Under the pieces are notes generated by a model, which was given only the letters and a program-made list of their open reading frames with translations, was not told where the DNA came from and ran no database searches. From Candidatus Dadabacteria bacterium UBA1144 (GTDB taxonomy: Bacteria; Desulfobacterota_D; UBA1144), in contig DCAB01000012.1 of NCBI GenBank assembly GCA_002311855.1, forward strand, positions 196,112 through 260,111: DNA of 64,000 nt. Direction: 5' to 3'. The translations under genes and the position numbers were made by a program. Of this stretch, positions 21,873-59,307 are shown in pieces (the stretch's first letter is position 1; the number at the start of each line of letters is the position of its first letter).

Positions 21873-23264
21873 CTACTTCCCGATACAGAATTTGGAAAAT
21901 AATGCATCATAAATATCTTCGTTAGATACTTCCCCTGTTATTTTTCCTATTTCATTTAGAAACTCTCTAATCTCAAAAGATACAATCTCCATTGGACTCC
22001 CATCGTTAAATAATTTTAATGAATTTTGAATTGACATAATCCCCTTTCTTAGGTGTCTCACTTGTCTTTCAGTTGTTAATAGAGCCTCGTCAGAATCTAA
22101 ATTGTCTCCCATTTTTGATAATTCTGGTAATTTTTCAACCAATAAGTCCACATTTATGTTCTTTTTTGCAGAAATCTTTATATATTCGACACCTTCCTCA
22201 ATTAATTCATTTTCAATCTTCCATTTTTTGTCAAATCCATATATATCGCACTTATTTAATATATATATTTTTTTTCCACGTGGAATAAAGTCAAATTTTT
22301 GATCAACTAATTTTATATTGATGTCCGAATCCATTACGATAAGTACCAAATCAGAATAATCAACTTGGTCTTTGGCTTTTTGAATTCCAATATTCTCAAT
22401 TTCATTTGTAGTAATTCTCATCCCAGCTGTATCAGAAAAAACTATTTTTTTTCCATCAACGATTATTTGAGCATCTAACAAATCTCTAGTGGTTCCGGGG
22501 GTAGATGTAACGATGGCTTTTTCCTCGTTAATTATAGAATTCAATAGGGTTGATTTGCCAACATTTGGTTCACCTAAAATTAGCACCCTTAGCCCGTCTA
22601 TAATAAGTCTCCCTCTACGATATGTTTGCATTAGAAGATTAGATTGATTGATTAGATTCTGAAATTCTTCTTCAATAGAATTCTTGTCGAATTGAGGAAT
22701 TTCTTCTTCTGGAAAATCGACTCTAGCTTCAATTTCAGATAAAAGATTGATACCTAACTGCCTAAGATTATTGAATTTTTTTGTAATTGCTCCTGAAATA
22801 TTCTTAGTTGAACAACGTGCGGATGCTTCAGACTGAGAGGCGATTAATGTCGATATAGCTTCAGCTTTTAACAAATCAATTTTACCGTTTATGAATGATC
22901 TATAAGAAAACTCACCTGGTTCTGCTATTCTTGCTCCAAGATCTACAATGGTGTTTAAAACTGTGTTGGGAACAACAAATCCTCCATGTGTATGAAATTC
23001 TATTACATCTTGTCCTGTTAATGAATTTGGTGAGCTAAAAAAAATGCAAATTGATTCGTCAATAATTTCTCCTCGATGTACCAAATTCCCAAAATAGACC
23101 ATTCTATGTTTAAGGTCTTCGCTATTACAACTAGCTTTAAATAGTTTTAATGCAATTTTTTTGGAATCAGAGCCACTTATTCTAATAACCGAAATTGAAC
23201 CAGCTCCGGATGGTGTGCAAATAGCGCAAATAGTGTCATTAAGTAATTGAATTTTATTTCTCAT
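21873..23264 (-). CDS. mnmE: tRNA modification GTPase MnmE
   Basis: 463 aa: N-terminal THF-binding domain, G domain (GEPNVGKSTLLN, DTAG), C-terminal CIGK. Confidence 0.9.
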   Translation of the reverse strand: MRNKIQLLNDTICAICTPSGAGSISVIRISGSDSKKIALKLFKASCNSEDLKHRMVYFGNLVHRGEIIDESICIFFSSPNSLTGQDVIEFHTHGGFVVPNTVLNTIVDLGARIAEPGEFSYRSFINGKIDLLKAEAISTLIASQSEASARCSTKNISGAITKKFNNLRQLGINLLSEIEARVDFPEEEIPQFDKNSIEEEFQNLINQSNLLMQTYRRGRLIIDGLRVLILGEPNVGKSTLLNSIINEEKAIVTSTPGTTRDLLDAQIIVDGKKIVFSDTAGMRITTNEIENIGIQKAKDQVDYSDLVLIVMDSDINIKLVDQKFDFIPRGKKIYILNKCDIYGFDKKWKIENELIEEGVEYIKISAKKNINVDLLVEKLPELSKMGDNLDSDEALLTTERQVRHLRKGIMSIQNSLKLFNDGSPMEIVSFEIREFLNEIGKITGEVSNEDIYDALFSKFCIGK

Positions 23265-23326
23265 CTTAATCTAATAAGAATACGCTTTATTAATGTTAAC
23301 AACTAAAATTATATTAAATTTTTTTT

Positions 23327-23355
23327 TTGCGATATACTAGTCACTCTGCTATAAT
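23327..23355 (+). promoter_or_regulatory. sigma70-type promoter TTGCGA-17 bp-TATAAT upstream of the acyl-CoA dehydrogenase operon
   Basis: -35 at 23327-23332 and -10 at 23350-23355 with exact 17-bp spacing; a GGGAGGG RBS lies 7 nt before the ATG at 23400. Confidence 0.5.
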
Positions 23356-23399
23356 ACTTTGGTTTAATTACCCCCAATCACCACCTGGGAGGGCAACTA

Positions 23400-24545
23400 A
23401 TGGGTCTATGCTTTGATTTTTCTGAAGAACAAAATATGATGCGTGATGCAATTAAAACATTTTGCAAGGAAGAAGTTGAACCTCTCGTTGAAAATGCAGA
23501 AAAACAAGAATCTTTTCCTATCGAGTTGTATCCCAAGATGGCAGAGATGGGCTTATTAGGAATATGTTTCGATGAAAAATATGGTGGCTTGTCTCTTGAT
23601 AAGGTTACAGAGTGTATATTAGCCGAAGAATTGGGCAGAACATGCGCTGGGATAGCAAAAGGCGTAAATGCCCACGTTGACTTAGCATGCTTGCCCCTCT
23701 CTAAGTTTGGAACCGAGGAACAAAAAGAAAAGTATTTGGTCCCCTCAATATCCGGAGAACTGATTGGTGCACTCGCAATAACTGAACCAAATGCCGGTTC
23801 TGACGCAAGAGCAATAAAAACAAGTGCTACACAAGAAAAAGATAAGTGGATTTTAAATGGAACAAAGACATGGATTACAAATGGAGTAATTTGTAATTAT
23901 GTAGTTGTTGCAGCATATACAAACAAAGAAGATAGAAAAAATGGTATTAGTATTTTTCTAGTTGACAAGGATACTCCGGGGTTTTTAGTTTCAAGAAAAA
24001 TTGAAAAATTAGGACATAGGTCATCAGATGTAGCTGAATTGGTATTCGAAAATTGCGAACTTCCCAAAGATGCTCTTCTTGGAGGAGAAGAAGGAAAATT
24101 TCAAGCATTAATGGAGACATTGATAGCTGCAAGAATTTCACATTCCATAAAGAGCGTTGGCCTTGCAACTGCTGCATTTGAATATGCTTTAAGCTACTCA
24201 AAAGAAAGAGAAGCTTTTGGAAGAAAAATTAATAAGTTTCAAGGAATAAGTTTCAAATTAGCCCAGATGGCAACAAAAATTGAAACCGCAAGATTGCTTG
24301 GATATAAGGCCGCATGGCTCTACGATCAAGGTAGGCCTTGCGTTAAAGAGGCATCAATGGCCAAGCTTTACTCAGCCGAAGTGGTACAGTGGTGCGCCAC
24401 TGAAGGGGTTCAGGTTTTAGGTGGTTACGGATATGCAACTGAATATGCAGCTGAGAGATTTTATAGAGATGCCAAACTGGCATCCATCACTGAGGGCACA
24501 TCCGAGATTCAACAGATTATTATTGCTAGGGAGCTTGGAATTTAA
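23400..24545 (+). CDS. acyl-CoA dehydrogenase
   Basis: 381 aa with ACAD N, middle and C domains, a C-terminal catalytic-Glu region (ASITEGTSEIQQIIIAR) and a FAD site. Confidence 0.9.
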   Translation: MGLCFDFSEEQNMMRDAIKTFCKEEVEPLVENAEKQESFPIELYPKMAEMGLLGICFDEKYGGLSLDKVTECILAEELGRTCAGIAKGVNAHVDLACLPLSKFGTEEQKEKYLVPSISGELIGALAITEPNAGSDARAIKTSATQEKDKWILNGTKTWITNGVICNYVVVAAYTNKEDRKNGISIFLVDKDTPGFLVSRKIEKLGHRSSDVAELVFENCELPKDALLGGEEGKFQALMETLIAARISHSIKSVGLATAAFEYALSYSKEREAFGRKINKFQGISFKLAQMATKIETARLLGYKAAWLYDQGRPCVKEASMAKLYSAEVVQWCATEGVQVLGGYGYATEYAAERFYRDAKLASITEGTSEIQQIIIARELGI

Positions 24546-24591
24546 ATTATCTTTGTTAAGCTAAAAATAGAAAAGCAAAAGGAGATTTACA

Positions 24592-25803
24592 ATGGGAACA
24601 CAGATACCAAATGTTGATGACACTAGGGAATTACTTAAAAAAAATCAGATTGGGATTGTAGGAATAGGTGAAACAGAACAAGGAAAAATTCCAGGAAAAA
24701 GTTCTTTTGATTTTCTCTCCCATGCATCAAAGTTAGCAATAGAAGATGCCGGGATTCTCAAATCTGACGTGGATGGAATTATAACAGCCTTTTCTTTGGT
24801 TGAAGAAACTTTTATGCATTGTACAACTTTTGCAGACTACATAGGAATCAATCCTAAGTATTTTGAATCCATTGCTATAGGTGGGGCTACTGCTGTATGG
24901 ATGACAGCTGCGGCTGCGATGGCTATCAATTCTGGCCAAGCCGAAGTCGTCTTGTGTGCAAGAGGAGACAACACCCTTTCCGGAATTTCTTCTGCAGGAA
25001 TGATTGCCTTAATTAGAGAAATGTGTCATGGAGAATTTGAATATCCATTTGGTTTAACAACACCAGGGGGCTATGCTTTGCTGGCGCAAAGATATCTTTA
25101 CGAAACTAAAGGAAAGAGGGAACATTTGCACTCCGTTGCTGTAACAATGCGCCAACATGCCAAATTAAAGGAAAATGCTATGAATAAAGATGATTTATCT
25201 TTGGATGATATTTTAAACACAAGACTATTAGCTTCACCTCTAACAAAATATGATTGCTCAATTGTTACTGATGGGGGTGCTGCTTTTATCGTTACAACAA
25301 AGGCAAAAGCCAAAGAGCTTGGGATAAAAAGGGATCCCGTATATTTGCATGGAATGGGGCAAGGCTTTTCGCACCAATACTTAACCTCATGCGCAGATCT
25401 GAATCAAATTTATGGGGCAATAGAAACATCCGGAGAGAAAGCATTTAAAACAGCCGGCATGACAAATCAAAACGTAGACGTAACGTTTCTTTATGATTGC
25501 TTCACCATTACAACCCTACTAGAACTTGAAGGTCTTGGAATCGTTCCTAGGGGGCATGCGGGTGCTGCTGCACTTGAAGGAAGGCTCCACAAAGATGCGG
25601 ACATACCCCTGAACACTCATGGTGGACTGCTTTCGCAAGCTCACCTTGGAGCTATGCACCATGTTGTTGAAGCAGTTTTACAATTAAGGGGAGAAGCTGG
25701 GGAACGGCAAGTAAAGAGCCCTAGTACAGCCCTGGTTCACGGAAATGGAGGCATAGTTTCAGCGCATAGCACCATTCTTTTAGGGAACGAGCCACTAAGT
25801 TAA
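24592..25803 (+). CDS. thiolase-like protein of the SCP-x / lipid-transfer-protein (Ltp2) type
   Basis: 403 aa; thiolase fold lacking the classic biosynthetic-thiolase N-terminal motif, resembling non-specific lipid-transfer/DUF35-partner thiolases; followed by a DUF35 gene. Confidence 0.8.
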   Translation: MGTQIPNVDDTRELLKKNQIGIVGIGETEQGKIPGKSSFDFLSHASKLAIEDAGILKSDVDGIITAFSLVEETFMHCTTFADYIGINPKYFESIAIGGATAVWMTAAAAMAINSGQAEVVLCARGDNTLSGISSAGMIALIREMCHGEFEYPFGLTTPGGYALLAQRYLYETKGKREHLHSVAVTMRQHAKLKENAMNKDDLSLDDILNTRLLASPLTKYDCSIVTDGGAAFIVTTKAKAKELGIKRDPVYLHGMGQGFSHQYLTSCADLNQIYGAIETSGEKAFKTAGMTNQNVDVTFLYDCFTITTLLELEGLGIVPRGHAGAAALEGRLHKDADIPLNTHGGLLSQAHLGAMHHVVEAVLQLRGEAGERQVKSPSTALVHGNGGIVSAHSTILLGNEPLS

Positions 25804-25823
25804 TATTTCATAGGAGCTATAAA

Positions 25824-26249
25824 ATGTCAGAAGAGAAAATAGAATATCAAAAACCACTTCCTGATTTTAGACCTGAAACAAAACCATTTTGGGATGGAAC
25901 AAAGCAGCATAAATTGTTGTTGCCAAAATGCAAAGAAACAGGAAAGGTTTTTTTCTATCCAAGGGCTATTAGTCCCTTTCCTGAATCTGTTAACAGAGAT
26001 TTTGAATGGGTTGAATCAACAGGGAAGGGTAAAGTATGGACCTATTCTGTTCACTATATGGGACCAACAAGGGCCTACAAAGGTGAGGTTTACGTGGTAG
26101 CGCTCATTGAACTTCACGATGGAGTCAAGATGATGTCAAACATAGTAGAATGTGATCCAGAAAGTGTAACAATAGGAATGGAAGTAGAAGTAGTTTTTGA
26201 GGACGCGACAGAAGAAGTTACTTTTGCAAAGTTTAAACCAGTAAAGTAA
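25824..26249 (+). CDS. DUF35 OB-fold protein (ChsH2 C-terminal-like), rubredoxin cysteines absent
   Basis: 141 aa showing the expected DUF35 order of a short ribbon region followed by an OB fold (VWTYSVHYMG, VALIELHDGVKMMSNIVE). The N-terminal region has a single Cys instead of a Cys4 knuckle. Confidence 0.7.
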   Translation: MSEEKIEYQKPLPDFRPETKPFWDGTKQHKLLLPKCKETGKVFFYPRAISPFPESVNRDFEWVESTGKGKVWTYSVHYMGPTRAYKGEVYVVALIELHDGVKMMSNIVECDPESVTIGMEVEVVFEDATEEVTFAKFKPVK

Positions 26250-26259
26250 GGGGAAAACA

Positions 26260-26706
26260 ATGGATGACAAATTATTTTATGAAGATGTTGAAGATGGGGC
26301 GGAACATGAATCAAGTGGAAGAACCGTAACTGAGGCAGATGTAGTAAATTTTGCTGGGCTTTCCGCAGACTTTAACAATATGCATATCGATGAGGAGTTT
26401 GCTAAAAACACAGTCTTTAAAACCAGAGTTGCTCATGGGATGTGTGTATTATCAATAGCTACCGGGCTTTGGTTTACGATGCCAAGGTTAGCGACAGTTG
26501 CATTCATGGGATTGCAGGATTGGAGATTTTCTGGTGCTGTTAAGCCGGGAGATACAGTTAAAATAACCCGCAAACTGGTGGAAAAGAAAGAACACAAAAG
26601 GCCCAATATGGGATTTTTAAACTGGGAAGTCAACGTAGTTAATCAGACGGGGGATGTGGTTCAAAAGGGTATCTGGGTCATATTGGTGCAACGAAAAAAT
26701 GCTTAA
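26260..26706 (+). CDS. MaoC-like (R)-specific enoyl-CoA hydratase (hot-dog fold)
   Basis: 148 aa with VTEADVVNFAGLSADFNNMHIDEEFAKNTVFKTRVAHGM. Confidence 0.8.
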   Translation: MDDKLFYEDVEDGAEHESSGRTVTEADVVNFAGLSADFNNMHIDEEFAKNTVFKTRVAHGMCVLSIATGLWFTMPRLATVAFMGLQDWRFSGAVKPGDTVKITRKLVEKKEHKRPNMGFLNWEVNVVNQTGDVVQKGIWVILVQRKNA

Positions 26707-26849
26707 TGATAGTTTTCCCATATTATAATAAATCTAATGATTTAAATAAGTTAGGTGTAATCTACCTCCCTTTTTTTCTAAAAAAGTGTTGACTTTACTA
26801 AAGTAACTATGTTAAAAAGGTTAATAACCTTATAAAAGGAGGTAGGTAT

Positions 26850-27344
26850 ATGTTAGGATATGTACTTTTACTTGTAGGTTTCGTATTCTTTTGCAACGGT
26901 ATGACACTGTTGGGCAAGACTGGCGGAAAAGAAGTCGGTATGCTTAACGGTGCTGTAGCTATTCTAATTCTAGTCGCTGCATTTACGGGAGCTGGGCTTG
27001 GTCCAGATGGTGCAGCAACAACCGCACTTGTTTCCGTTTTTGCTTTGATTTACGTCATGGCATTTGCTGTTTTCACGCTAGGACATGATGGTAAAGGCCT
27101 TGGCTGGTATTGTCTTTTCGCTACCATAGTTTTCTTATGGTACGGGCAATTCTTCCTAAGTGTTGGAGCAATGGAATTAGGCCTGTTTAACATTGCATGG
27201 GCTGTCCTTACTCTTGTTGCATTCTTAGTTCTTGCACAAGGTAAAGCACTTGGAACTCTGTTAGCATATTTATTTATTGCAGAATCATTTGTAACACTAT
27301 TGATTCCTGGAATGAACATGCTTACAAAAGGGGTCCTTTTCTAA
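26850..27344 (+). CDS. AmiS/UreI-family channel (putative small amide/urea transporter)
   Basis: 164 aa, 6 predicted TM segments; the N-terminus MLGYVLLLVGFVFFCNGMTLLGK...GMLNGAVAILILV closely resembles UreI/AmiS N-termini. A strong RBS AAAGGAGG precedes the ATG. Confidence 0.7.
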   Translation: MLGYVLLLVGFVFFCNGMTLLGKTGGKEVGMLNGAVAILILVAAFTGAGLGPDGAATTALVSVFALIYVMAFAVFTLGHDGKGLGWYCLFATIVFLWYGQFFLSVGAMELGLFNIAWAVLTLVAFLVLAQGKALGTLLAYLFIAESFVTLLIPGMNMLTKGVLF

Positions 27345-27377
27345 AAGAAAGGAAACTTACTATAAAATTTATATGAG

Positions 27378-27409
27378 GGGCCAGTTTACTAACTGGCCCT
27401 TTTCTTTTT
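27378..27409 (+). terminator. rho-independent terminator after the AmiS/UreI-like gene
   Basis: GGGCCAGT-ttacta-ACTGGCCC followed by TTTTCTTTTT. Confidence 0.65.
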
Positions 27410-27525
27410 AATCTTACTGACAATTAGAAGTTGATATTAGTTCTTATGAAAGAGAATGTTCTTACCGATCCCGATTGTTAGTCTCCGGTTTTCAACTTTT
27501 AAGGGACCAAATATCTAGGAAGTGG

Positions 27526-28983
27526 TTATTTTTTCCCATACCATTTAGGCGAGGATCCACCCGTGAATATGCTTACATTTTTTATTCTTAAGTATTCGTC
27601 TATTCCTTCCAAACCTAATTCCTTCCCAACGCCGCTTTGTTTGAACCCACCATAAGTTGTTTCAGGGACAATTCCACCATAGGTGTTAATCCACAAATAT
27701 CCAGCGTCAATTCGTTTTGACACTCTTATTGCTCTGGAAATATCTTGAGTCCATATTCCTCCAGCCAAACCATAATCAGTATCATTAGCTAAATTAATCG
27801 CTTCGTCCTCATCATCAAAAGGTATCATAGCCACAACGGGGCCAAAAACTTCCTCTTTGAATAAGATGTTTTTGTTAGAATTAATTTCGATTAGGGTAGG
27901 TAAAAAATAGTAGCCCTTTAATTTTTTATTTTCCTCCCCCCCAAACAAAACTTTTCCGCCTTCTCTGATTCCAGCTTCAACATAGTGATGCACTTTATCA
28001 AAATGAGTCTTAGACACTAAAGATCCTATTTCTGTTTTTTTATTTTTTGGATCACCTTGGACAATCTGTGCTATTTTTTCAACAAATTTTTTCTTAAATT
28101 TTTTATAAATTTTTCTATTCACGATTAATCTCGTTACCGCAGTACAATTTTCCCCCTGATTAAAAAATCCTCCCCTAAGATTTGCCTCTAAACATGATTC
28201 GATATCTGCGTCTTCAAAGATGATATTTGGGGCTTTCCCTCCTAGCTCCAAAGAAAGCCTAGAAAGGTTTGCTGAACTTTCCTGCACTATTAATTTGCCA
28301 ACAGGTGTTGAGCCTGTAAAAGAAATTTTTGAAACAAGGCGGTTTTTAACGAGTGCGGTTCCAGCATCTTCTCCTTTTCCAGGACAGACATTGATAACCC
28401 CTTTTGGGACCCCACATTCTTCGCAGATTTTTGCTAGTTCAAGTGTTCCGTGTGGCGTAAGCTCAGAAGGTTTAACCACCATTGTGCAGCCCGCTGCGAG
28501 AGCCGGGGCCATTTTCCATGACGCCAGCAGCATAGGGAAGTTCCAGGGAAGTATTAGAGCAACAATCCCTACTGGTTCTTTGATGGTCAATGAAAGAAGA
28601 TCCTTGTTCAATACTTGTGAGTCACCATGAATCTTAGATGCAAGGCCTGCATAATATTCAAAGGTTCTAGCAACTCCGGCTATTTCTACCAATATGCTTT
28701 CATTGATTGGTTTTCCCGTTTCTTCGGTATTAATCAATCCTAAGTAGTCGGCTCGCTCTCTTATTTTCTCGGCTATTTTAAATAATATATTTCCGCGAAT
28801 GCTTCCTGGAGTTACGGACCAGGCATCAAATGCCCTGTGAGCAGATTGACAGGCTCTATCAATTTCATTTTTTGAAGCTAACGAAATTTCTTCAAGGGGT
28901 TCAAGGGTTGCTGGATTTTCCCTGATATATGAATTCTCTAACTCTACAAGCTCTCCATCTATTAGAGCAACGGACTTGCGCAT
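27526..28983 (-). CDS. NAD(P)-dependent aldehyde dehydrogenase
   Basis: 485 aa with the catalytic Cys region (QGENCTA), a Glu active site (LELGGKAP) and a Rossmann-type GSTPVGK motif. Confidence 0.9.
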   Translation of the reverse strand: MRKSVALIDGELVELENSYIRENPATLEPLEEISLASKNEIDRACQSAHRAFDAWSVTPGSIRGNILFKIAEKIRERADYLGLINTEETGKPINESILVEIAGVARTFEYYAGLASKIHGDSQVLNKDLLSLTIKEPVGIVALILPWNFPMLLASWKMAPALAAGCTMVVKPSELTPHGTLELAKICEECGVPKGVINVCPGKGEDAGTALVKNRLVSKISFTGSTPVGKLIVQESSANLSRLSLELGGKAPNIIFEDADIESCLEANLRGGFFNQGENCTAVTRLIVNRKIYKKFKKKFVEKIAQIVQGDPKNKKTEIGSLVSKTHFDKVHHYVEAGIREGGKVLFGGEENKKLKGYYFLPTLIEINSNKNILFKEEVFGPVVAMIPFDDEDEAINLANDTDYGLAGGIWTQDISRAIRVSKRIDAGYLWINTYGGIVPETTYGGFKQSGVGKELGLEGIDEYLRIKNVSIFTGGSSPKWYGKK

Positions 28984-29250
28984 TGAATTAATTTATCATG
29001 GAATGTGGTTTTAAGAAACCATTACTCTATCGATTGAGTTGCAGGGGCAAGGGAAAGTATTATAACAGTTCTTTTGTAGGTAGAGAAAACCTATTCAACT
29101 AGTTCACCATTCTCCCATGTTCCAGGCTCAAACTTGCAATCTGGACTAAGCCCCTTGTGTCCTGGGACAAGTTCACAAATTGTTCACAGGTGATTTTCAA
29201 CCTTAGAAATGCATTAAAAATAAAAAGACTTAAATTGGGTATTCGCTTAG

Positions 29251-29283
29251 GGAAGAAAAGGGCCCTTCTCGTAAGAAGAGCCC
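29251..29283 (-). terminator. rho-independent terminator after the ADC-like gene pair
   Basis: Minus-strand hairpin GGGCTCTTC-ttacga-GAAGGGCCC (29260-29283) followed by TTTTCTTCC (29251-29259), 20-40 bp past the stop at 29302. Confidence 0.55.
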
Positions 29284-29301
29284 TAAAATTACCAGTTGTT
29301 C

Positions 29302-30276
29302 TTAGGCACCTGGATACATTGGGATCATGAATCTGTGTCTCATTGTATATTTAAATGGTGTTGAGAACAATAATGCTCCGAAATCTTTTTCAGGATCTCT
29401 TTCAACTGTTCTCTCCCATACAATTGACGCTGGTGGAATGATTAAGTTAAATGTGAACGAAATCAAGCCGTGAACTGTTACGTTGCCTAATTGACCTCCC
29501 ATGAAGTCAAAAGGCGTCCCAGCCATATACCATGATCTTACATCTTCTCCAGTACATGTTCTTACAGAGCTAGGATCCAATTGGAATCTGTGTCCTGTTC
29601 CGAACTGCGGTGGCAACTCAGAACCAAGATGTGTAACTTGGTGTCTGGTGCGTGTTATATCTGGATAAGTTGTAATTCTGTAATTTAATCTACCCCAGTC
29701 TGTTTTACCATAGAATGTTGGTTTGTGTGGGGTTGGTTTGTCTGAATAACGACCATTTGCTGAATGGAATACATAACCTCTTCTTTCCATTGTCATATTG
29801 AAGTAGTTATCGTTTGTTCCATGCTCAAAAGCTGCAATATAAGCGGCTTTTTTAGGGAATCCGAATGGTTCTCTACCAGCAAAAATTGGTGAGTCGTTTG
29901 AAAGGTACATATAAGGGTAATATCCACCCTTCGTTACGTGCCCGTCTTGACCTTTAACCGTTGAAGAGGCTGTTACGCCAAACTCCATGTATGGTCCAAG
30001 CATTGTGTTTCTGTGTATAACATACCAGAACTCAAGGATTGGATCATGAAGCTCAACCGGGTCAGGTATGATAGCATTCAAGTTAGCTTCGTCCGCTTCA
30101 ACTACAAAAGCCATCCAACGGCTTTCTGTATAAGTCAAAGGGATGATATCGTAGTCGAAAACAGGATCGGCAACACCCTGAGAGACAATATGAATTCTAT
30201 CTCTATCAAGTGGTAGCGGTGGAACTTCGCCTTCTTCTAACCACGGATAACTATATTCGTTTGCTTGTTTTCCCAT
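29302..30276 (-). CDS. acetoacetate decarboxylase-like (ADC superfamily) protein, paralog 1
   Basis: 324 aa. The core GYYPYMYLSNDSPIFAGREPFGFPKK aligns with the Clostridium ADC Schiff-base lysine region (YLHMMYLDNEPAIAVGRELSAYPKK), with about 90 aa of extra N-terminal sequence. Confidence 0.7.
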   Translation of the reverse strand: MGKQANEYSYPWLEEGEVPPLPLDRDRIHIVSQGVADPVFDYDIIPLTYTESRWMAFVVEADEANLNAIIPDPVELHDPILEFWYVIHRNTMLGPYMEFGVTASSTVKGQDGHVTKGGYYPYMYLSNDSPIFAGREPFGFPKKAAYIAAFEHGTNDNYFNMTMERRGYVFHSANGRYSDKPTPHKPTFYGKTDWGRLNYRITTYPDITRTRHQVTHLGSELPPQFGTGHRFQLDPSSVRTCTGEDVRSWYMAGTPFDFMGGQLGNVTVHGLISFTFNLIIPPASIVWERTVERDPEKDFGALLFSTPFKYTMRHRFMIPMYPGA

Positions 30277-30307
30277 GATTTATTTCCTCCTTAATTAATT
30301 GAGTTCC

Positions 30308-31315
30308 TTACGCACCTTGGTGAATTGGGAACTGTTGTCTTAAACCATACTGATATGGTGTTGCGTAGCCTCTGTAGCTGGCTGGTCTTTCATATGTTTC
30401 AGTCCAGACAACTTCAGGAACTGGGATGATTAGGTCAAAAGTAAATGAAATTAAACCTTTAATAGCATTAACTTTTATCTCTGCACCCATATTGTCAAAT
30501 GGTGTTGCTTGTGCGAACCAATTTATGGCATCGCCAGAAGCAGTTCTTGTGTGCTCAGGTTTGACTTGGAATCTGTGTCCTTCGATGTTAAACGCCGCTG
30601 GAAGTTTAGATGGTAGATATGTTAACTGCCATTCTGAACTTGCTACGTCACAACGTGTGTCAACCTTCATATTGAATTTGCCCCAGTCAGTTTTTCCATA
30701 GAAAAATGGTGGTTTGACGTCGGCATCATCATATTTGCCTTGCTGTGCGGTTAAAAGGTAACCATTTCTTGTCATTGAAAAGCCAAAATAGTCGTTTCCT
30801 TTTTCGCCACCATGCTCGGTGATTCTGATATAGGACATTTTTTTAGGGAATCCTAAAACACGGCCTGCATCAACAGGTGCATCACCTGTTAGGTACATAT
30901 ATGGATAGTAACCAGCTTTCCATGTGTTACCTTTTGGATCTGTATGCGTTGCGGAGATTGTTACTCCGAACTCAATATATGGTCCTAGCATTGTGTTATA
31001 GTGCATTACGTACCAATACTCGACAAGTTCTGCATCGTCACCGTCCCATATTGTTAATGGTGGGTTTGGACATAGTCTCTGTCTCGTATCAGCAGGTACA
31101 TCAATAACAAACGCGCTCCATCTTGAATCACTATAAGTTAGAGGAAGGACATCAATATCCCATAGAGGATCGGCAGGGTTGCCGACAATCCATGTATTAA
31201 TGTCTCTTTCCATCGGACTTGCAGGTATTTCGTCTGGAGCCATTTTCCAGTACTTATCGTCTACATTAAGATGACTTGGCATCGTTATAGACCTCCTTAG
31301 TTGGATTTTGCGCAA
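30308..31315 (-). CDS. acetoacetate decarboxylase-like (ADC superfamily) protein, paralog 2
   Basis: 335 aa collinear with paralog 1 throughout (LPLTYSDSRW, NTMLGPYIEFGVT, GYYPYMYLTGDAPVDAGRVLGFPKK, KGLISFTFDLIIP); both lysines of the FPKK motif are conserved. Confidence 0.7.
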   Translation of the reverse strand: MRKIQLRRSITMPSHLNVDDKYWKMAPDEIPASPMERDINTWIVGNPADPLWDIDVLPLTYSDSRWSAFVIDVPADTRQRLCPNPPLTIWDGDDAELVEYWYVMHYNTMLGPYIEFGVTISATHTDPKGNTWKAGYYPYMYLTGDAPVDAGRVLGFPKKMSYIRITEHGGEKGNDYFGFSMTRNGYLLTAQQGKYDDADVKPPFFYGKTDWGKFNMKVDTRCDVASSEWQLTYLPSKLPAAFNIEGHRFQVKPEHTRTASGDAINWFAQATPFDNMGAEIKVNAIKGLISFTFDLIIPVPEVVWTETYERPASYRGYATPYQYGLRQQFPIHQGA

Positions 31316-31514
31316 TTAAAAATAAGATACAGTAGTCAAGAAGCCCACTTGTAGCCTCTCCACACCCCGTTATTACAATTAAAGCAAATACAGCAGAAAT
31401 AGTCAACGAGTTTTTGTTAAAATTGGGTCAAGCGATCCAATTACTTCAAAATGTAGTCTTTTGTGATTTAGAAGACGTATTAAATTTAATAAAAGCACCG
31501 CAGGAGCTCCTCTC

Positions 31515-32294
31515 TTATAGTCCCATTTTTTTTTCCAGTAGCTCCGCTACCAAAACAGCCCTCTCGTTAATCAGCAAGGTGGCTCTTGAGTCAAAAGGGG
31601 TGTCCATTAAATCAATTATTACAAGCTCAGAGCCTGTTTTTAGAGCAACGTCGGGCAGGCTGTTTGCTGGTGAAACTTGCAAAGAAGAACCAACGACAAT
31701 CATAAGAGTGGTGTCTTTACACTTATCAACCGAGGAGTCCCATGGCACTTTTGGTAGGGCTTCTCCAAAAAATACAGCAGTAGGTTTTATCAAGCCTTGG
31801 CATGGCTGTCCTTCAAATTCTTCACAAATCGGGGGGTTTTCTCCTTTTTGGACTCTTTGTATGATATCGTCCATTGAATAAATTTGACCACACTGTAAAC
31901 AAGAAGCTCTTCTAAGAGATCCATGTAATTCATGGACATCGGAACTCCCAGCTTCCAAATGAAGTCCGTCGACATTTTGAGTTATTACACCTTTAATTAA
32001 ATCCTCTTTCTCTAGTTTGGCTACAAGCAAGTGGGCTTTGTTCGGTTTTGCAGATGACCTAATTGGATACATTTCAAGCGCGTAATTAAAATATTGCGTT
32101 GGATCGCTTAGGAATCCCTGTATTGATACTATTGACGAATCATATTTCTCCCATGATCCAGAGCCAGGAGTACGGTAATCAGGTATTCCTGAGTCGGTAC
32201 TAATGCCAGCTCCAGTAAACACGACGGCGCTTCTATTCCCCAGAATCATATCTGCTAATTTTTGAATTTGTTCGTCTAGCGTCATATTAAACAC
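31515..32294 (-). CDS. cobB: NAD-dependent protein deacylase (sirtuin, CobB-like)
   Basis: 259 aa with GAGISTDSGIPDYR, a Cys4 Zn module (CLQCG...CEEFEGQPC) and HG..R. Confidence 0.85.
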   Translation of the reverse strand: MFNMTLDEQIQKLADMILGNRSAVVFTGAGISTDSGIPDYRTPGSGSWEKYDSSIVSIQGFLSDPTQYFNYALEMYPIRSSAKPNKAHLLVAKLEKEDLIKGVITQNVDGLHLEAGSSDVHELHGSLRRASCLQCGQIYSMDDIIQRVQKGENPPICEEFEGQPCQGLIKPTAVFFGEALPKVPWDSSVDKCKDTTLMIVVGSSLQVSPANSLPDVALKTGSELVIIDLMDTPFDSRATLLINERAVLVAELLEKKMGL

Positions 32295-32332
32295 AGGAAG
32301 GATTATTTAAAATCCTTCCTGATAATCAATTT

Positions 32333-33148
32333 TTAGCCGTTTTCGTCGGTTCTTGTTGGCAAACCCATTTGTTCGGCAGCAGCATTGATGGCAGCTAATC
32401 TCTCTGGTGTAAGAGCAGACTCTGGTTGTAAAACACCTAGTTTTGTCAGTTCCTCGTCTACAGCAGGATCAGCAATGGCTGGTGTACCAAACTTTTCTTG
32501 ATAGATAATGTCCCCATAGGCTCTTCTTGGTCGCATTCCCATAGATTCAACGGTTTCTCCGGGATAACCAATGGCCATTGCCCATACGAACTGAGCAGTC
32601 TCTGGAAATCCTAGCAACTCACCAATTTTTGGTGGAACCCCCGCATAAGCACAACAACCTAGCCCTAGAGCTGTAGCCATTAGCTGAGCTTGAGCCATAG
32701 CCATTCCAGTTTCACAACTAAGCATATAGCTGACGACTGGATCAGGAAAGGTTGTAAGTCTTGGTAGAGTTGAATTTTCAATGTTGTCCAAGCTCCAACC
32801 ATGACTCGGGTTGATAGCGCCAAGTTTAAAAATCTTTGGGAGCATCTCTGGAAGGCCTTCGAACCACCATTTTCTGTCCAAAGCAAAAACTAAGCTTACC
32901 GGTGCCATTTGAGCCATCGGAATATTAAAACTAGATACTATTTTAGTAAAAGCATCCTTTGTTTCCTGCTTTGACACGATGGTAATTGTTACAGCATTAG
33001 CGTTTCCCATATGTGAAGCGGTTCTGGCAGCTTGACAAATAGCTTGTATCTTTTCCGGTTCTACCGGCCTATTGGGATCATAAAATCTACATGAACGTCT
33101 ATCCCCAATAACGTTCATAAAATCTTTTCCTTGATAATCTAAACCCAT
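32333..33148 (-). CDS. nitroreductase-family flavoprotein
   Basis: 271 aa with an N-terminal RRSCRFY FMN-binding signature and C-terminal LGLGCCAYAG; longer than classic NfsA/B. Confidence 0.6.
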   Translation of the reverse strand: MGLDYQGKDFMNVIGDRRSCRFYDPNRPVEPEKIQAICQAARTASHMGNANAVTITIVSKQETKDAFTKIVSSFNIPMAQMAPVSLVFALDRKWWFEGLPEMLPKIFKLGAINPSHGWSLDNIENSTLPRLTTFPDPVVSYMLSCETGMAMAQAQLMATALGLGCCAYAGVPPKIGELLGFPETAQFVWAMAIGYPGETVESMGMRPRRAYGDIIYQEKFGTPAIADPAVDEELTKLGVLQPESALTPERLAAINAAAEQMGLPTRTDENG

Positions 33149-33306
33149 TTTATTCCTCCTTTTTTGAATAATGTAATAGAAAAACTTCTACTTCTATAGT
33201 ACAGAATTTGGCATTTTTTTGCAATAACTTTAATAATTTGCTGGTAAAGGGGGTCTAAAAATTCCCGGTTTGCTGAAATAGGTCTAAAAACTCTTGTTTT
33301 GTTTCG

Positions 33307-33729
33307 TTATTTAATAGCTCTAAATTTGTAAGAATAGATATCGCTTCCGTCTTTCGCTTTTCTGACAATTCCTACAATTGTCTCAACTTCCATCTCTAGT
33401 TTTAAGTCGTTTTCTAAGTCGTCAGCCTCTACTTGGGCCATAACCCTTACTTCTTGTTCGGGAAAATCGACAAGGCCTAAACCAAAAGGGACCGGGAAAT
33501 CAGGAAGGCTCCTTCGGACAATAGTAAAAGAATGTAGAATTCCCCTTCTTGGAAGAAGAGTAGGTTCAACATCATCTTGGAAGCTCACGGGATCTGCTAA
33601 ATATGCAGGGAAGGTCCAATTCCCTGAGGACTTAGACTTACCCGCTATCAATCTTGGTTCGGGGTCTTCTGTAAATAAATCCGCGTGCAAAACTTTTCTG
33701 TCTTCAGGTTCACTCATAACAATCTCCAC
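33307..33729 (-). CDS. DUF35 OB-fold protein (second copy), no ribbon cysteines
   Basis: 140 aa, placed immediately downstream of a thiolase-like gene as in Ltp2/ChsH2-type pairs, with a DUF35-like OB-fold C-terminal half. Confidence 0.65.
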   Translation of the reverse strand: MEIVMSEPEDRKVLHADLFTEDPEPRLIAGKSKSSGNWTFPAYLADPVSFQDDVEPTLLPRRGILHSFTIVRRSLPDFPVPFGLGLVDFPEQEVRVMAQVEADDLENDLKLEMEVETIVGIVRKAKDGSDIYSYKFRAIK

Positions 33730-33742
33730 ATAACTGTAGTTG

Positions 33743-34909
33743 TTATTTGCCCAATATGCTTACCACACAGGTAATTCCGTCCATAGCAGGTTGGGCACCC
33801 CCCATAGTCTCAATCAAGCCAATTTTAGGGTTGGGCACTTGATATCCTGTTGCCTCTCCTCTTAATTGATTAACAATCTCAACAGTTTGAAGAATTCCGG
33901 TTGCACCAACTGGGTGGCCCCGTGAAAGGAGTCCTCCACTTGGATTGATTGCAATGTCACCATCATAATTAGATTTTTCTTCTTCTATTAGTGTCGCGCC
34001 TTCGCCTTTTTTTGCAAATCCCAGTGCTTCTGCGACTATCAGCTCTGCAATAGCAAATGCGTCATGAATTTCTGCAATGTCTATATCTTTGGGTCCAAGC
34101 CCTGCGTGTTCATATGCCATACCTGAGGTTCTTGTCACATTTTCTGAGGGATCACACGTCAGACCAGTAGCTGAGGAATAGCCCCCTGATTGGGCAGCGA
34201 TTCCAAGCACTTTAATGGGTAGCCTGTCTTTGTCCCGTTTGATTTTGTTTAGCATGTCACCGCCAACCAAAACTGTTGCCGCAGCAGAGTCTCCAATGGG
34301 ACAACACATGCTTCTTGTCAAGGGGTCGGCTATCATAGGATCCGCCATTACTTGTTCGACTGTAGTTTCTTTTCTAAACTGTGCTATTGGATTCATCGCG
34401 GCGTGTTTTCTGCTTTTCACAACTACCTTAGCCAAAGTCTCAGCGGAAACGCCATACTCGTCCATGTATCTTCTTGCCCTCATCGCATACAAACCAGGCA
34501 TGCTCATGCCCAATGCAACTTCAATGTCATCTTCCTCAAGAGGAAGTGGGCCACCTGACATAATTTTGGATAGGTTTTCTACCCCCCATGCCAAGGCTAA
34601 ATTATTTTGGCCATAAGCTATAGACCTCCACGCTTCCCAAAAAGATAACGTGCCGCTTCCACAGGCACCTTCAACGTTAATCACGGGTTGGCCGACTATT
34701 CCAATATCCTTAAGTGTTCTTTGACCAACGCCCATTCCTTGATAAACGTGGCCGCAGAATGCTATTTCGATATCTCTTGGGTGTATACCAGCGTCTTTAA
34801 TCGCCGCCCAAGTCACCTCTCTTCCAAGAACATGTGCGGCTTTCGTTGGGAACTTGCCACACGGATGTTGTCCCACGCCAATGATATAAACATCTCTTAA
34901 GCTAGCCAT
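33743..34909 (-). CDS. thiolase-like protein of the SCP-x/Ltp type (second copy)
   Basis: 388 aa with N-terminal VYIIGVGQHPCGKF and an active-site Cys region (EGACGSGTLSF); paired with a DUF35 gene. Confidence 0.8.
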   Translation of the reverse strand: MASLRDVYIIGVGQHPCGKFPTKAAHVLGREVTWAAIKDAGIHPRDIEIAFCGHVYQGMGVGQRTLKDIGIVGQPVINVEGACGSGTLSFWEAWRSIAYGQNNLALAWGVENLSKIMSGGPLPLEEDDIEVALGMSMPGLYAMRARRYMDEYGVSAETLAKVVVKSRKHAAMNPIAQFRKETTVEQVMADPMIADPLTRSMCCPIGDSAAATVLVGGDMLNKIKRDKDRLPIKVLGIAAQSGGYSSATGLTCDPSENVTRTSGMAYEHAGLGPKDIDIAEIHDAFAIAELIVAEALGFAKKGEGATLIEEEKSNYDGDIAINPSGGLLSRGHPVGATGILQTVEIVNQLRGEATGYQVPNPKIGLIETMGGAQPAMDGITCVVSILGK

Positions 34910-34994
34910 TTACAAAACCTCCCTTGAGTTTCAAATCCAATAAAAGTAGAAAGAAAATTGTAAATTGAAAAACGTAAAAAGGCAATAAGAACCC

Positions 34995-35810
34995 CTATGC
35001 CCAATTAAGTGCTTTGTATAAAGCATTCTTTATTATAGGAAAAATTTTCTGTGTTCTTGTGGGTCTAATTAAATTATCTATGTTCACGACCTCTACAATA
35101 CCTTTTGTTGCATTTGTAATGAATATAGCCTCAGGAAACAAAATTGACCCAAGCTCATATTTCCCCTCCAAAATGTTTAGTCCTTTTTCGTTGGATATAT
35201 CAATTATCAAGCTCCTTGTTATTCCGGGAAGTAGGCCGCAAGACAAAGATGGGGTAAACAGGTTGGAGCCTTTTATCCAGAATATGTTTCCTGATGTGGT
35301 TTCGGAGACTAAATTGTCTGGATTAAGAAAGAGAGCATCATCGAAACCTTTTTTGATTGCACTTCTTCTCTCTAAAACAGAAATAAGATAATTGGTTGTT
35401 TTGTGTTTAACCAAGTCATGAGAACAGTTTCTTGTTGCTTGTGCAATGGTTAATGAAATCTCATTTTTTACTGAATCATCCTCTTTAATTGAGACCATAA
35501 CAATTGTTTTGGTGGATTTCCCAAAATACACCCCCTCCCCAGATCCTAACAACGCGATTTTTATTACCAAGTCTTTAGAGTGGTGTCCTTTTACAAAAGT
35601 TTCAACAAGATTCTGTATATAAAAATCACCAGGATACTTAAGCAAAAGAAATTCCGCGGAGTGTTTAAGTCGCGCAAGGTGTCTATCAAAAAAAACCGGC
35701 AATTTCTCCTTGTACCTAAAGGTTTCAAACACTCCTTCGCCAAAGAGAAAAGCTCTATTAATCTCGCTTGCGTTTTTCAATTGCTTATCAAAATAAATTG
35801 ATTCTTTCAT
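34995..35810 (-). CDS. pabC: aminodeoxychorismate lyase / class IV aminotransferase
   Basis: 271 aa fold-type IV PLP enzyme (FGEGVFET, a nearby K) placed directly after pabB with a 4-nt overlap. Confidence 0.7.
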   Translation of the reverse strand: MKESIYFDKQLKNASEINRAFLFGEGVFETFRYKEKLPVFFDRHLARLKHSAEFLLLKYPGDFYIQNLVETFVKGHHSKDLVIKIALLGSGEGVYFGKSTKTIVMVSIKEDDSVKNEISLTIAQATRNCSHDLVKHKTTNYLISVLERRSAIKKGFDDALFLNPDNLVSETTSGNIFWIKGSNLFTPSLSCGLLPGITRSLIIDISNEKGLNILEGKYELGSILFPEAIFITNATKGIVEVVNIDNLIRPTRTQKIFPIIKNALYKALNWA

Positions 35811-43198: not shown

Positions 43199-43323
43199 AC
43201 AGTAGTAGTAGTATGTATGTTAATATGTTAAGTAACAAAAAAAAGGGGAAAAACAAACGAGAAACAGCCCACATCTTTTAACGGTAATCAACAAAAAAAA
43301 CAACCACCAAAAAAAAGTCAACA

Positions 43324-50667: not shown

Positions 50668-50973
50668 ATGGCAAAATCAATTAGGCCCCTAGGGGATAAG
50701 GTTTTAGTAAAGAGAATGGATGTGGCGGAGAAAACGGAGGGGGGCATTATAATTCCTGAAAGTTCCACAGAAAAGCCCTTAGAAGGAACCGTTGTTGCCG
50801 TGGGCAAAGGAAGAGTGGACGAAAAAGGCAAAACTATTCCTTTGACTCTTAAAAAAGGGGACAAAATTCTTTTTAATAAATATGGAGAATCTGAAATTTC
50901 TTTTGAAAACGAAGAACTTCTAATACTCGAAGAAGCCGATGTTTTAGCGGTTCTTATAAATACTGCTAAGTAA
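50668..50973 (+). CDS. groES: co-chaperonin GroES (no groEL follows)
   Basis: 101 aa with IRPLGDKVLVKR...EGGIIIPESSTEKP mobile-loop and roof motifs, preceded by an AGGAG RBS. The 3' end overlaps the convergent cofC-like gene by about 30 nt. Confidence 0.9.
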   Translation: MAKSIRPLGDKVLVKRMDVAEKTEGGIIIPESSTEKPLEGTVVAVGKGRVDEKGKTIPLTLKKGDKILFNKYGESEISFENEELLILEEADVLAVLINTAK

Positions 50974-59293: not shown

Positions 59294-59307
59294 AATTTCT
59301 CTTTAGA

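Follow-up and report, generated by a model that had tools for sequence, protein, structure and literature searches.

A conserved Candidatus Dadabacteria gene cluster with a candidate aldolytic acyl-CoA module and a paired branch of the acetoacetate decarboxylase superfamily

In the Scd-Shy-Sal-Sad system, through which Comamonas testosteroni and Pseudomonas sp. Chol1 break down the bile-acid C5 side chain, the chemistry passes in order through an acyl-CoA dehydrogenase (ACAD), a MaoC hydratase, an aldolase that lacks the thiolase cysteine and is accompanied by DUF35, and an aldehyde dehydrogenase (ALDH). The igr operon of Mycobacterium tuberculosis (FadE28-FadE29, ChsH1-ChsH2, Ltp2) has a comparable inventory of ACAD, MaoC, DUF35, and an SCP2-thiolase-like aldolase; its reaction is the retro-aldol cleavage of a 3-hydroxyacyl-CoA, by which a C3 steroid side chain gives a ketone and propionyl-CoA. 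To our knowledge, the Sal and Ltp2 aldolases have so far been known solely from steroid side-chain degradation. Here we describe a cluster of twelve genes in Candidatus Dadabacteria bacterium UBA1144 that, judging from the encoded proteins, has the domain logic of these two modules (ACAD, MaoC, an aldolase candidate with DUF35, and ALDH) in a non-steroid, short-chain setting. The cluster lies in a stretch of 64,000 nucleotides (GenBank assembly GCA_002311855.1, contig DCAB01000012.1, positions 196,112 to 260,111), which we call the window and whose numbering is used throughout. What is new is that this module is joined in evolution, in three phyla, to an uncharacterised and probably heteromeric branch of the acetoacetate decarboxylase (ADC) superfamily.

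Dadabacteria are widespread in ocean and soil, and the host genome is streamlined, with a GC content of 36.5%. The occurrence of the Sal/Ltp2 active-site solution together with a short-chain ACAD in a tiny marine genome suggests that an aldolytic cut might serve more generally in place of thiolysis. The cluster occupies about 11.5 kb between mnmE and pabBC, with mnmE and pheT on its left and pabC and pabB on its right, and consists of two gene sets that converge, as established from open reading frame (ORF) calls and Pfam domain searches. An earlier note on this DNA, made from the sequence alone, had placed the same twelve genes at the same positions and in the same convergent layout, and all of its family assignments held in the Pfam searches, a check that it had itself proposed. 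These genes, and one oxidoreductase gene beyond pabB, are as follows.

23400-24545, plus strand: ACAD, short-chain type, i.e. butyryl-CoA dehydrogenase or short-chain acyl-CoA dehydrogenase (SCAD) type; three ACAD domains, E 4e-47 to 3e-29
24592-25803, plus strand: T1, SCP2-thiolase-like protein without the thiolase Cys, predicted to be a Sal/SLP-type retro-aldolase; Thiolase_C_1, 3e-46
25824-26249, plus strand: DUF35/OB-fold partner of T1; OB_ChsH2_C 1e-20, zf-ChsH2 5e-7
26260-26706, plus strand: MaoC (R)-specific enoyl-CoA hydratase; Pfam 6e-29, D-x-N-x-x-H motif
26850-27344, plus strand: AmiS/UreI-family channel; Pfam 1e-25, six hydrophobic segments (six-helix)
27526-28983, minus strand: NAD(P)-dependent ALDH of the betaine-/aminobutyraldehyde-dehydrogenase-like class; Pfam 2.5e-163, own transcription unit
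29302-30276, minus strand: ADC_A, ADC superfamily, GREPFGFPKK type; Pfam 6e-25
30308-31282, minus strand: ADC_B, ADC paralog, GR-VLGFPKK type; Pfam 2e-14, ORF as called 30308-31315
31515-32294, minus strand: Sir2/CobB-type NAD-dependent protein deacylase; SIR2 4e-47
32333-33148, minus strand: nitroreductase-superfamily flavoprotein (NTR); Pfam 1.5e-16
33307-33729, minus strand: DUF35/OB-fold partner of T2; Pfam 7e-10
33743-34909, minus strand: T2, true SCP2-type thiolase by its motifs; ACGSG nucleophile, HDAF motif
36927-38981, minus strand: membrane Fe-S/CCG (Hdr-like) oxidoreductase; five hydrophobic segments, two [4Fe-4S], two CCG

The cluster and known aldolase and thiolase systems

At the site where T2 and the thiolases of the Firmicutes carry (G/A)ACG(S/T)G, the thiolase-like protein T1 of the plus strand reads IGGATA, i.e. 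Gly in place of the nucleophilic Cys. The counterparts of this segment are GGASS in 9myr and GGGAA in Ltp2 (6ok1), and in HMMER alignments the LYDCF motif of T1, which is also present in loci L088 and L091, falls on YDCY of 9myr and on YDHF of Ltp2 (6ok1). In the retro-aldolase CtSal, as a 2025 study showed, Tyr302 and Cys304 within Y-D-C-Y form the catalytic pair and a Gly stands where thiolases have their nucleophile; the trypanosomal SLP (YDCF) has the same architecture (PMC12329534). Because T1 shares with CtSal both the Cys-less (Gly) site and the Y-D-C-[F/Y] motif, it passes the sequence tests for an aldolase of the Sal/SLP type and is predicted not to be a thiolase. This supports the retro-aldolase reading that the earlier note had given of the protein, and the reaction proposed for T1 is the one known from igr. 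T1 scored 232 bits against 4u4e and 164 bits against Ltp2; with the NCBIfam models, it reached 119 of 750 bits for BbsB and its DUF35 partner 26 of 250 bits for BbsA, both below the cut-offs. The DUF35 domain with which Sal/SLP aldolases are complexed bears a zinc finger of the C3H1 or C4 type. The DUF35 gene adjacent to T1 keeps one of the four zinc-ribbon Cys residues; the cluster differs from Scd-Shy-Sal-Sad in the loss of the DUF35 zinc ligands as well as in having DUF35 and MaoC as separate genes.

The dehydrogenase sets the cluster further apart. Whereas Scd-Shy-Sal-Sad has a two-gene steroid ACAD, here a single gene encodes an ACAD whose best solved relatives are Bcd (4l1f, 5ol2) and SCAD (1jqi), with the catalytic Glu within ITEGTSEIQ at the position used by SCAD and medium-chain acyl-CoA dehydrogenase (MCAD). 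Unlike the two-gene steroid enzymes, a single ACAD of this Bcd/SCAD type points to a small substrate. The hydratase motif of MaoC is intact (SADFNNMH). The two-gene ACAD and the steroid context of the known modules are both missing here, with no steroid genes in the 64-kb window; those modules in turn are without the ADC pair, the Sir2 protein, and the UreI-type channel, all three of which are encoded here.

On the minus strand, T2 keeps the thiolase Cys and His (motifs ACGSG, GHPVGATG, and HDAF), and its best solved match is the benzoylsuccinyl-CoA thiolase BbsB (7pxp, E 7e-81). By these residues T2 is a true BbsB-like thiolase rather than a second aldolase, a distinction that had not been drawn in the earlier note. 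Together with its DUF35 gene, from which it is separated by 13 bp, T2 reproduces the two-subunit thiolase/DUF35 architecture of BbsAB, including the HDAF motif, and it likewise resembles the DUF35-scaffolded (archaeal-type) thiolase complexes. It differs from BbsAB in that the DUF35 partner is without the zinc-ribbon Cys residues and that the window has no bbs pathway genes (CoA-transferase, short-chain dehydrogenase/reductase (SDR)). The Firmicutes and Miltoncostaea versions of the scaffolded complexes add a third subunit resembling hydroxymethylglutaryl-CoA synthase (HMGCS) or PhlA, whereas the window has no HMGCS-like gene. The complex of PDB 9vbo/9vbt, an antibiotic-biosynthesis thiolase, was set aside as unrelated.

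The remaining minus-strand proteins are less specific in their matches. The ALDH scored below every equivalog cut-off of NCBIfam; marine Dadabacteria have it, as do a few further relatives (L022, L029, and L088). The Sir2 protein accompanies the ADC pair in three phyla; in our own reading of its sequence, it is without the Tyr-x-x-Arg motif, which we take to be the signature of desuccinylases. NTR has only generic relatives, the solved ones including the nitroreductase-family enone reductase CLA-ER (4qlx). A function as dehydro-F420-0 reductase, like that of the FbiB C-terminal domain, was considered for NTR and rejected, as no FbiB model or structure was among its matches.

The Fe-S/CCG oxidoreductase gene at 36927-38981 lies outside the coordinates of the earlier note, which did not mention it. 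Its first 17 nt overlap with the end of pabB, its product is 74-81% conserved in marine relatives, and over its full length it is 35% identical to a Firmicutes protein encoded between the alpha subunit of electron-transfer flavoprotein (ETF) and the ADC pair. By this homology and neighbourhood, it is probably an electron outlet for the ACAD, and a candidate for one of the ETF:quinone type.

Between the ALDH and AmiS genes, positions 27345-27525 form a 181-bp spacer where six marine relatives (L005, L006, L009, L010, L014, and L090) carry a gene for a PNPOx-like (Pyridox_oxase_2) protein of about 210 aa. A tblastn search gave no trace of this gene in the UBA1144 genome. Since six marine relatives carry it and none was traced here, we count it as lost from an otherwise identical cluster.

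The ADC pair, its distribution and its inheritance

ADC_A and ADC_B share 43% identity. The residues R53, E82, E98, K142, and K143 do not vary among 26 aligned sequences of the A and B types, and these positions align with R29, E61, E76, K115, and K116 of the ADC of Clostridium acetobutylicum (CaADC) and likewise with the residues of the Chromobacterium violaceum enzyme (CvADC). Both Schiff-base lysines and the further catalytic residues of ADC are thus kept, which bears out the ADC-like assignment of the earlier note. The fold is that of these true ADCs (3bh2, 3bgt), but the identity to them is just 15-20%, and the two paralogs are some 80 residues longer (~324 aa against ~245 aa), with a C-terminal extension, and form a fixed pair in B-then-A order rather than belonging to the homo-oligomer class. 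Their scores against NCBIfam PRK02265, 57 and 27 bits, did not reach the cut-off of 150 bits. The family profile found true ADCs at 4e-15 and the aldolase-dehydratase Sbi00515 at 0.015. An AlphaFold (AF2) model with a predicted local distance difference test score of 79 matched true ADCs best, with template modelling (TM) scores of 0.74-0.80 on target, against 0.64-0.73 for proteins of the MppR/Sbi00515/Swit_4259 type. The latter have the fold and the GFPKK Schiff-base loop in common with the pair but are weaker sequence and structure matches than the true ADCs, and they act on 2-oxo acids as single proteins; an aminotransferase goes with MppR, as it does with some of the ADC pairs. On these comparisons, the pair is a member of the ADC superfamily and nearest to family I, and its chemistry is likely that of a decarboxylase. 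As in the clostridial Thl-CtfAB-Adc acetone pathway, a thiolase is encoded nearby, but no CtfAB-like CoA-transferase was present among the cluster genes and the related loci examined.

In every pair whose types could be distinguished, ADC_B is upstream of ADC_A, and this holds across three phyla. Such fixed B-then-A pairing suggests an old duplication and a heteromer, and we infer that ADC_B and ADC_A form one. The core of the cluster that is conserved most widely is the ADC pair rather than the aldolase, a point that the earlier note had not made. Its proposal to look for ADC-like, DUF35-thiolase, and MaoC genes in each other's neighbourhood proved fruitful, as their co-occurrence was found across Dadabacteria and two other phyla.

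The set that recurs in Firmicutes and Actinomycetota comprises the ADC pair, ACAD, a Cys-less thiolase with DUF35, MaoC, Sir2, and a thiolase with DUF35. In Desulfofundulus thermocisternus and related contigs, an operon-like row consists of ACAD, an HMGCS/PhlA-like protein, thiolase, DUF35, DctQ, ETF beta/alpha, the Fe-S/CCG protein (a 680-aa membrane protein), and the ADC pair, and continues with DUF2148 proteins or an aminotransferase, DctP, an AMP-forming ligase, Sir2, a sigma54 activator (MimR_N), and a small nitroreductase; two alcohol dehydrogenases (ADHs) are encoded upstream. The ACAD of these Firmicutes clusters is 52-54% identical to the window ACAD. At the other extreme, one minimal contig carries just a T1-like protein, DUF35, and the ADC pair.

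Orthologues of the cluster are also carried by a 46.6-kb replicon (NZ_CP064358.1, plasmid unnamed2; L174/L175) of Miltoncostaea oceani, a cultured member of the Thermoleophilia. Identities to the window proteins are 52-53% for the ADC pair, 60% for ACAD, 51% for MaoC, 51% for the T1-like protein, and 47% for its DUF35, with more distant homologues of Sir2 (29%) and the thiolase (34%). The replicon further encodes a transporter of the tripartite ATP-independent periplasmic (TRAP) type, cofD-cofC-cofE, an FAD oxidoreductase, cofH-cofG, two ALDHs, two SDRs, a second DUF35 with thiolase, an HMGCS-like protein, an AMP ligase, and an aminotransferase that is 57% identical to the Desulfofundulus one. 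Since the gene set is present in this cultured species and in Desulfofundulus (D. thermocisternus and D. luciae), its function is directly testable. Also found on the M. oceani replicon were RepA, ParA, a full F420 biosynthesis set, a lone ilvB-type thiamine pyrophosphate (TPP) enzyme, a BadI/MenB-like crotonase, an MftG-like GMC oxidoreductase, and a CbbQ/VWA pair.

The link to cofactor F420 extends to metagenomes. Among long high-GC metagenome contigs, 16 of the 27 have the arrangement fbiC / oxidoreductase-cofE-cofC-cofD-(DMT)-(TRAP) / ADC_B-ADC_A; these loci were read from tblastn maps, which replaced a naive ORF clustering that had given antisense artefacts. The contigs may all stem from one lineage (Miltoncostaeales-like), so we treat the F420 link as a lead and not as a finding. 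In the window itself, an Fno-like protein ('NADP oxidoreductase coenzyme F420-dependent', 218 aa; 49847-50503, plus strand) and a CofC guanylyltransferase (50944-51588, minus strand) are encoded about 15 kb from the cluster, and because of these two genes this Dadabacterium appears to make or use F420. If the cluster is tied to the cofactor, it would be a new F420-linked pathway beyond the classic actinobacterial and methanogen cases.

Within Dadabacteria, the closest relatives of the ADC proteins are in metagenome-assembled genomes of marine Candidatus Dadabacteria, at 84-91% identity, with all other Dadabacteria at 72-77%; NCBI files the marine relatives under Thermodesulfobacteriota. When the window proteins were mapped with tblastn on 84 fetched loci, the whole cluster and both flanks (HdrCCG-pabB-pabC and mnmE-pheT) were syntenic in the marine relatives L006, L010, and L090, and the left side in L005, while the cluster core, without ALDH and the flanks, was syntenic in terrestrial Dadabacteria such as CSP1-2. 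The gene order in the phylum is T2, DUF35, NTR, SIR2, ADC_B, ADC_A, (ALDH), AmiS, MaoC, DUF35, T1, ACAD. Compared with the closest relatives L005 and L006, the cluster proteins are 73-95% identical, whereas the flanking pheT and mnmE products are 50-54% identical. The cluster is therefore vertically inherited and strongly conserved in Candidatus Dadabacteria, and its ADC-like pair represents a branch of the superfamily that is deeply conserved, is probably heteromeric, and is more conserved there than pheT and mnmE.

Homologs labelled as archaeal (Methanosuratincola, Bathyarchaeota, and Thermoplasmatales; L037, L088, P0011, and P0125) were found on contigs of the Dadabacteria type. L088 carries the full cluster together with sigma70 and TetR genes, L037 carries T2 and DUF35 at Dadabacteria-level identity, and the archaeal labels are probably due to mis-binned Dadabacteria contigs.

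Many complete terrestrial Dadabacteria chromosomes (L042/L043, L045/L046, L047/L048, L049/L050, and others) have two ADC_B-ADC_A pairs of equal identity to the window, mostly 100-190 kb apart and in two cases ~400-500 kb apart. One pair adjoins ACAD-T1-DUF35-MaoC and the other is a few kb from an AmiS gene. These doubled pairs could stem from a recent duplication or from a repeat in the assembly; the N-termini of L049 and L050 are identical. On a 1.48-Mb Dadabacteria chromosome (L001, 8015-10987), an ADC pair is not accompanied by the other cluster genes. A 4HBT/DUF4442 thioesterase gene immediately precedes this pair, folate and purine genes (HPPK, FolD, PurH) surround it, and an orphan DUF35 gene is located 3.4 kb upstream. 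At L161 (6817-11318), a TetR regulator, a lone ADC homolog, and a split B12-dependent acyl-CoA mutase (555 aa and 136 aa, the Icm/Hcm size class) follow in a row.

Proposed pathway and competing readings

Our preferred reading, to which we assign a probability of roughly 40%, is that this vertically inherited cluster encodes a short-chain acyl-CoA module in which an aldolytic cut is coupled to the decarboxylation of a beta-keto acid. It builds on the family memberships, catalytic residues, synteny, and cross-phylum co-occurrence observed above, with the substrates, the direction of flux, and the roles of Sir2, NTR, and AmiS given as we infer them. A small acyl-CoA (about C4-C6) would be oxidised to the 2-enoyl-CoA by the ACAD, of the butyryl-CoA-dehydrogenase type, and the electrons would pass through an ETF encoded elsewhere and then, probably, to the membrane Fe-S/CCG protein. 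MaoC would hydrate the product to a (R)-3-hydroxyacyl-CoA, which T1, held by its DUF35 partner, may cleave to acetyl-CoA and a small aldehyde or ketone; in the marine lineage, the ALDH would oxidise the aldehyde. T2 with its DUF35 could interconvert a 3-oxoacyl-CoA with an acyl-CoA and acetyl-CoA, and the ADC_B/ADC_A heteromer would decarboxylate a free beta-keto acid, most likely acetoacetate or a close analogue, through a Lys imine. The Sir2 protein might keep reactive lysines deacylated, possibly including the catalytic Lys of the ADC, and the AmiS/UreI channel could pass a small uncharged solute, either substrate or product.

Several features hint, weakly but convergently, at C4 or small-carbonyl chemistry. 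These are the Bcd-type ACAD, the ADC pair nearest to true ADCs, the MimR_N (MimR/AcxR-type) regulators and alcohol dehydrogenases of the Firmicutes clusters, the Icm/Hcm-type split mutase beside the lone ADC homolog at L161, and the 4HBT thioesterase upstream of the ADC pair at L001. A more specific proposal, which we regard as quite unlikely, is an undescribed pathway free of ATP, biotin, and hydroxyacyl-CoA dehydrogenase in which a Sal-like aldolase and a heteromeric ADC would convert short acyl-CoA or beta-keto acids to acetyl-CoA, small volatile carbonyls (acetaldehyde, acetone), and CO2, with the UreI-type channel carrying the neutral carbonyl through the membrane and with a reduction dependent on F420 or flavin attached in some lineages. 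If the products are indeed small carbonyls, the cluster would bear on marine volatile-carbon cycling; if the acetone/acetaldehyde version were true, it would constitute an unrecognised marine source or sink and the first non-steroid physiological role of Sal-type aldolases.

A number of observations weigh against our preferred reading. The Cys of the YDCF motif is Ser (YDSF) in the closest solved homolog of T1, 4u4e, and in the Miltoncostaea oceani orthologue. As the C304S variant of CtSal is inactive (PMC12329534), the catalytic acid may differ in these proteins, or they may not perform a Sal-type aldol cleavage. Ltp2 has a second Tyr (Y344) in addition to its YDHF motif, and T1 has at the Y344 position a conserved His (QAHLG) that may be the real acid in this clade. 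The ALDH is missing from most terrestrial Dadabacteria clusters. The aldolase-dehydratase Sbi00515 likewise keeps GFPKK and the Glu, so retention of these residues by the ADC pair is no proof of decarboxylase activity. We found no CoA-transferase or thioesterase in the window that would free a beta-keto acid for the ADC pair, and no CoA ligase in the cluster that would make the ACAD substrate. Acetoacetate decarboxylation wastes carbon, with no evident physiological reason, and the adjacency of ADC and F420-biosynthesis genes in Actinomycetota is left unexplained by the model. In the literature searched, we found no paper that connects these families with each other, or ADC with Dadabacteria, DUF35/thiolase, or F420. 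The description of the pathway as self-contained in the earlier note did not hold either, as the cluster is without a CoA ligase or transferase, a 3-hydroxyacyl-CoA dehydrogenase, and an ETF; the orthologous clusters of Firmicutes and Actinomycetota supply ligase, ETF, TRAP transporter, and aminotransferase.

Individual routes were considered and set aside. A route from isovaleryl-CoA to acetone is disfavoured, because the ACAD has its Glu at the SCAD/MCAD position and scores Bcd/SCAD above isovaleryl-CoA dehydrogenase (IVD); the catalytic base of IVD is located elsewhere. Conversion of glutaryl-CoA through malonate semialdehyde to acetaldehyde, which would use ACAD, MaoC, T1, ADC, and ALDH, is not supported, as the ACAD is closer to Bcd than to glutaryl-CoA dehydrogenase and, in our own reading of its sequence, is without what we assume from the fold of that enzyme to be the Arg that binds the glutaryl carboxylate. 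Operation of the ADC in reverse as an acetone carboxylase was rejected on thermodynamic grounds, since carboxylation of acetone to acetoacetate costs ~+17 kJ/mol and would, by our estimate, give nanomolar acetoacetate at realistic substrate levels. The known acetone pathway of sulfate reducers employs a thiamine diphosphate (TDP) enzyme and a B12 mutase and not ADC.

The main rival explanation holds that the ADC pair is a Schiff-base aldolase-dehydratase (hydratase-aldolase) of the Sbi00515/MppR/Swit_4259 type, which would interconvert a 4-hydroxy-2-oxo or 2-oxo-3-enoic acid with pyruvate and an aldehyde, the aldehyde being passed to the ALDH and, by CoA activation, to ACAD, MaoC, and T1. Such activity is proven for superfamily members that share GFPKK and the Glu (fold matches 6eej, 4zbt, 4jmc, and 5upb), and the B-type loop GR-VLGFPKK is one residue shorter, as in Sbi00515; the profile and TM scores, however, favour true ADCs, and the equivalents of the N-terminal R29 and E61 are invariant. 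ALDH or ADH genes adjoin the ADC genes in several lineages, and a class I/II aminotransferase gene, reminiscent of the transaminases that MppR partners, directly follows the ADC pair in Desulfofundulus and is present on the Miltoncostaea replicon. The top NCBIfam match of this aminotransferase is the enduracididine-type GntC at 298 bits, which is below the cut-off and barely above the generic aspartate-aminotransferase scores, and the Dadabacteria cluster has no aminotransferase. We consider this explanation unlikely. The same genes could also be read in the synthetic direction: T2 and its DUF35 would condense acetyl-CoA, the ADC pair would decarboxylate irreversibly to a ketone or enamine, T1 and its DUF35 would add acetyl-CoA, MaoC would dehydrate, and a reversed ACAD or NTR would reduce, giving either a short branched acyl-CoA or a building block related to a cofactor, perhaps with a connection to F420. 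This would suit the very high conservation of the cluster, its position ~8-10 kb from dnaN/dnaA, its biosynthetic neighbours (pabBC, tyrA, pheA, and hisC), the CofC and Fno-like proteins of the window, and the presence of the enone reductase CLA-ER (4qlx) among the solved relatives of NTR, as well as the HMGCS-like/thiolase/DUF35 trios (archaeal condensing complexes) that accompany the ADC pair in Firmicutes and Actinomycetota. The ADC pair is moreover divergent from cofD-cofC-cofE, beside fbiC or cofGH, in those 16 of the 27 metagenome contigs and in M. oceani, an adjacency that may be the synteny of a single Miltoncostaeales-like lineage. Against synthesis speak the combination of ACAD, ETF, and membrane Fe-S/CCG protein, which is a classic oxidative arrangement, and the TRAP transporters, AMP-forming ligases, and inducer-responsive sigma54 or IclR regulators, which point to catabolism, as well as the failure of NTR to match the FbiB C-terminal model, and we judge the synthetic direction distinctly improbable.

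Two further explanations concern the cluster as a unit and are weaker still. It could consist of two unrelated operons side by side by chance, a beta-oxidation-like operon and miscellaneous genes, as might be suspected from its several transcription units with their own terminators and from the variation of the ALDH and PNPOx-like genes among relatives. Because the same families surround the ADC pair in three phyla, and because the minimal contig combines just T1-like, DUF35, and ADC pair, the genes appear to work together, and chance neighbourhood is very improbable. The suggestion of the earlier note that the cluster was possibly horizontally acquired, as a catabolic island of recent origin, is hardly credible. 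Gene GC is indeed higher in the cluster than in the other window genes, as that note had perceived, but at 0.415 against 0.355 (p = 2e-5; pheT 0.297) rather than 40-50% against 25%. The excess is confined to codon positions 1 and 2 (0.519 and 0.398 against 0.420 and 0.334), whereas GC at position 3 (GC3) shows no difference (0.328 against 0.312, p = 0.25), which indicates amino-acid constraint and not foreign DNA: the signal is that of constraint on slowly evolving enzymes within an AT-drifting genome. The patchy distribution of the ADC-pair family across phyla and its location on a small replicon in M. oceani would suit an island, but the same order is found with the flanks in marine relatives and the core is phylum-wide. 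The flat GC3 and this synteny correspond to the outcome that the earlier note had itself named as refuting its suggestion. There was no integrase, tRNA, or repeat boundary among the genes called, with no dedicated tRNA or repeat scan having been run.

Signals and neighbouring genes

The following signals accompany the two gene sets.

23327-23355, plus strand: sigma70-like promoter TTGCGA-17-TATAAT with extended -10 TG; 10 of 12 positions agree with the consensus, ACAD start ~45 nt downstream
27375-27402, plus strand: intrinsic terminator closing the plus-strand operon; 12-bp stem, after AmiS
29259-29284, minus strand: terminator after ADC_A; terminator scan

The promoter, which the earlier note had described as near-consensus, is present upstream of ACAD within the 135-bp mnmE/ACAD intergenic region; a single match of this kind is not statistically testable, the region having fewer promoter-like matches than its shuffles (15 against 28.9). 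The ribosome-binding site and the terminator that had been ascribed to AmiS are both there, the ATG being preceded by a strong site of its own, AAAGGAGGT. For ADC_B, the true start is most likely the ATG at 31282, behind AGGAGG, rather than the upstream TTG. In the 38-bp gap between NTR and sir2, a hairpin with an 11-bp stem and without a clean T-tract (32294-32321, minus strand) could be an attenuator or an RNA-processing site. An Rfam search of 22800-35300 for a riboswitch or leader that would name a ligand gave no credible match.

Beyond the cluster, dnaN and dnaA (42068-44760, minus strand) lie ~8-10 kb away, so that the replication origin is likely adjacent. GC3 of the genes is ~0.20-0.30 to the left of the cluster and rises to ~0.30-0.43 to the right. 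Genes for a two-subunit 2-oxoacid:ferredoxin oxidoreductase (POR_N/POR/PFOR_II and TPP_enzyme_C; 58283-61161, minus strand) lie beside nadA and nadC, which merits attention because the organism is usually described as an aerobic heterotroph.

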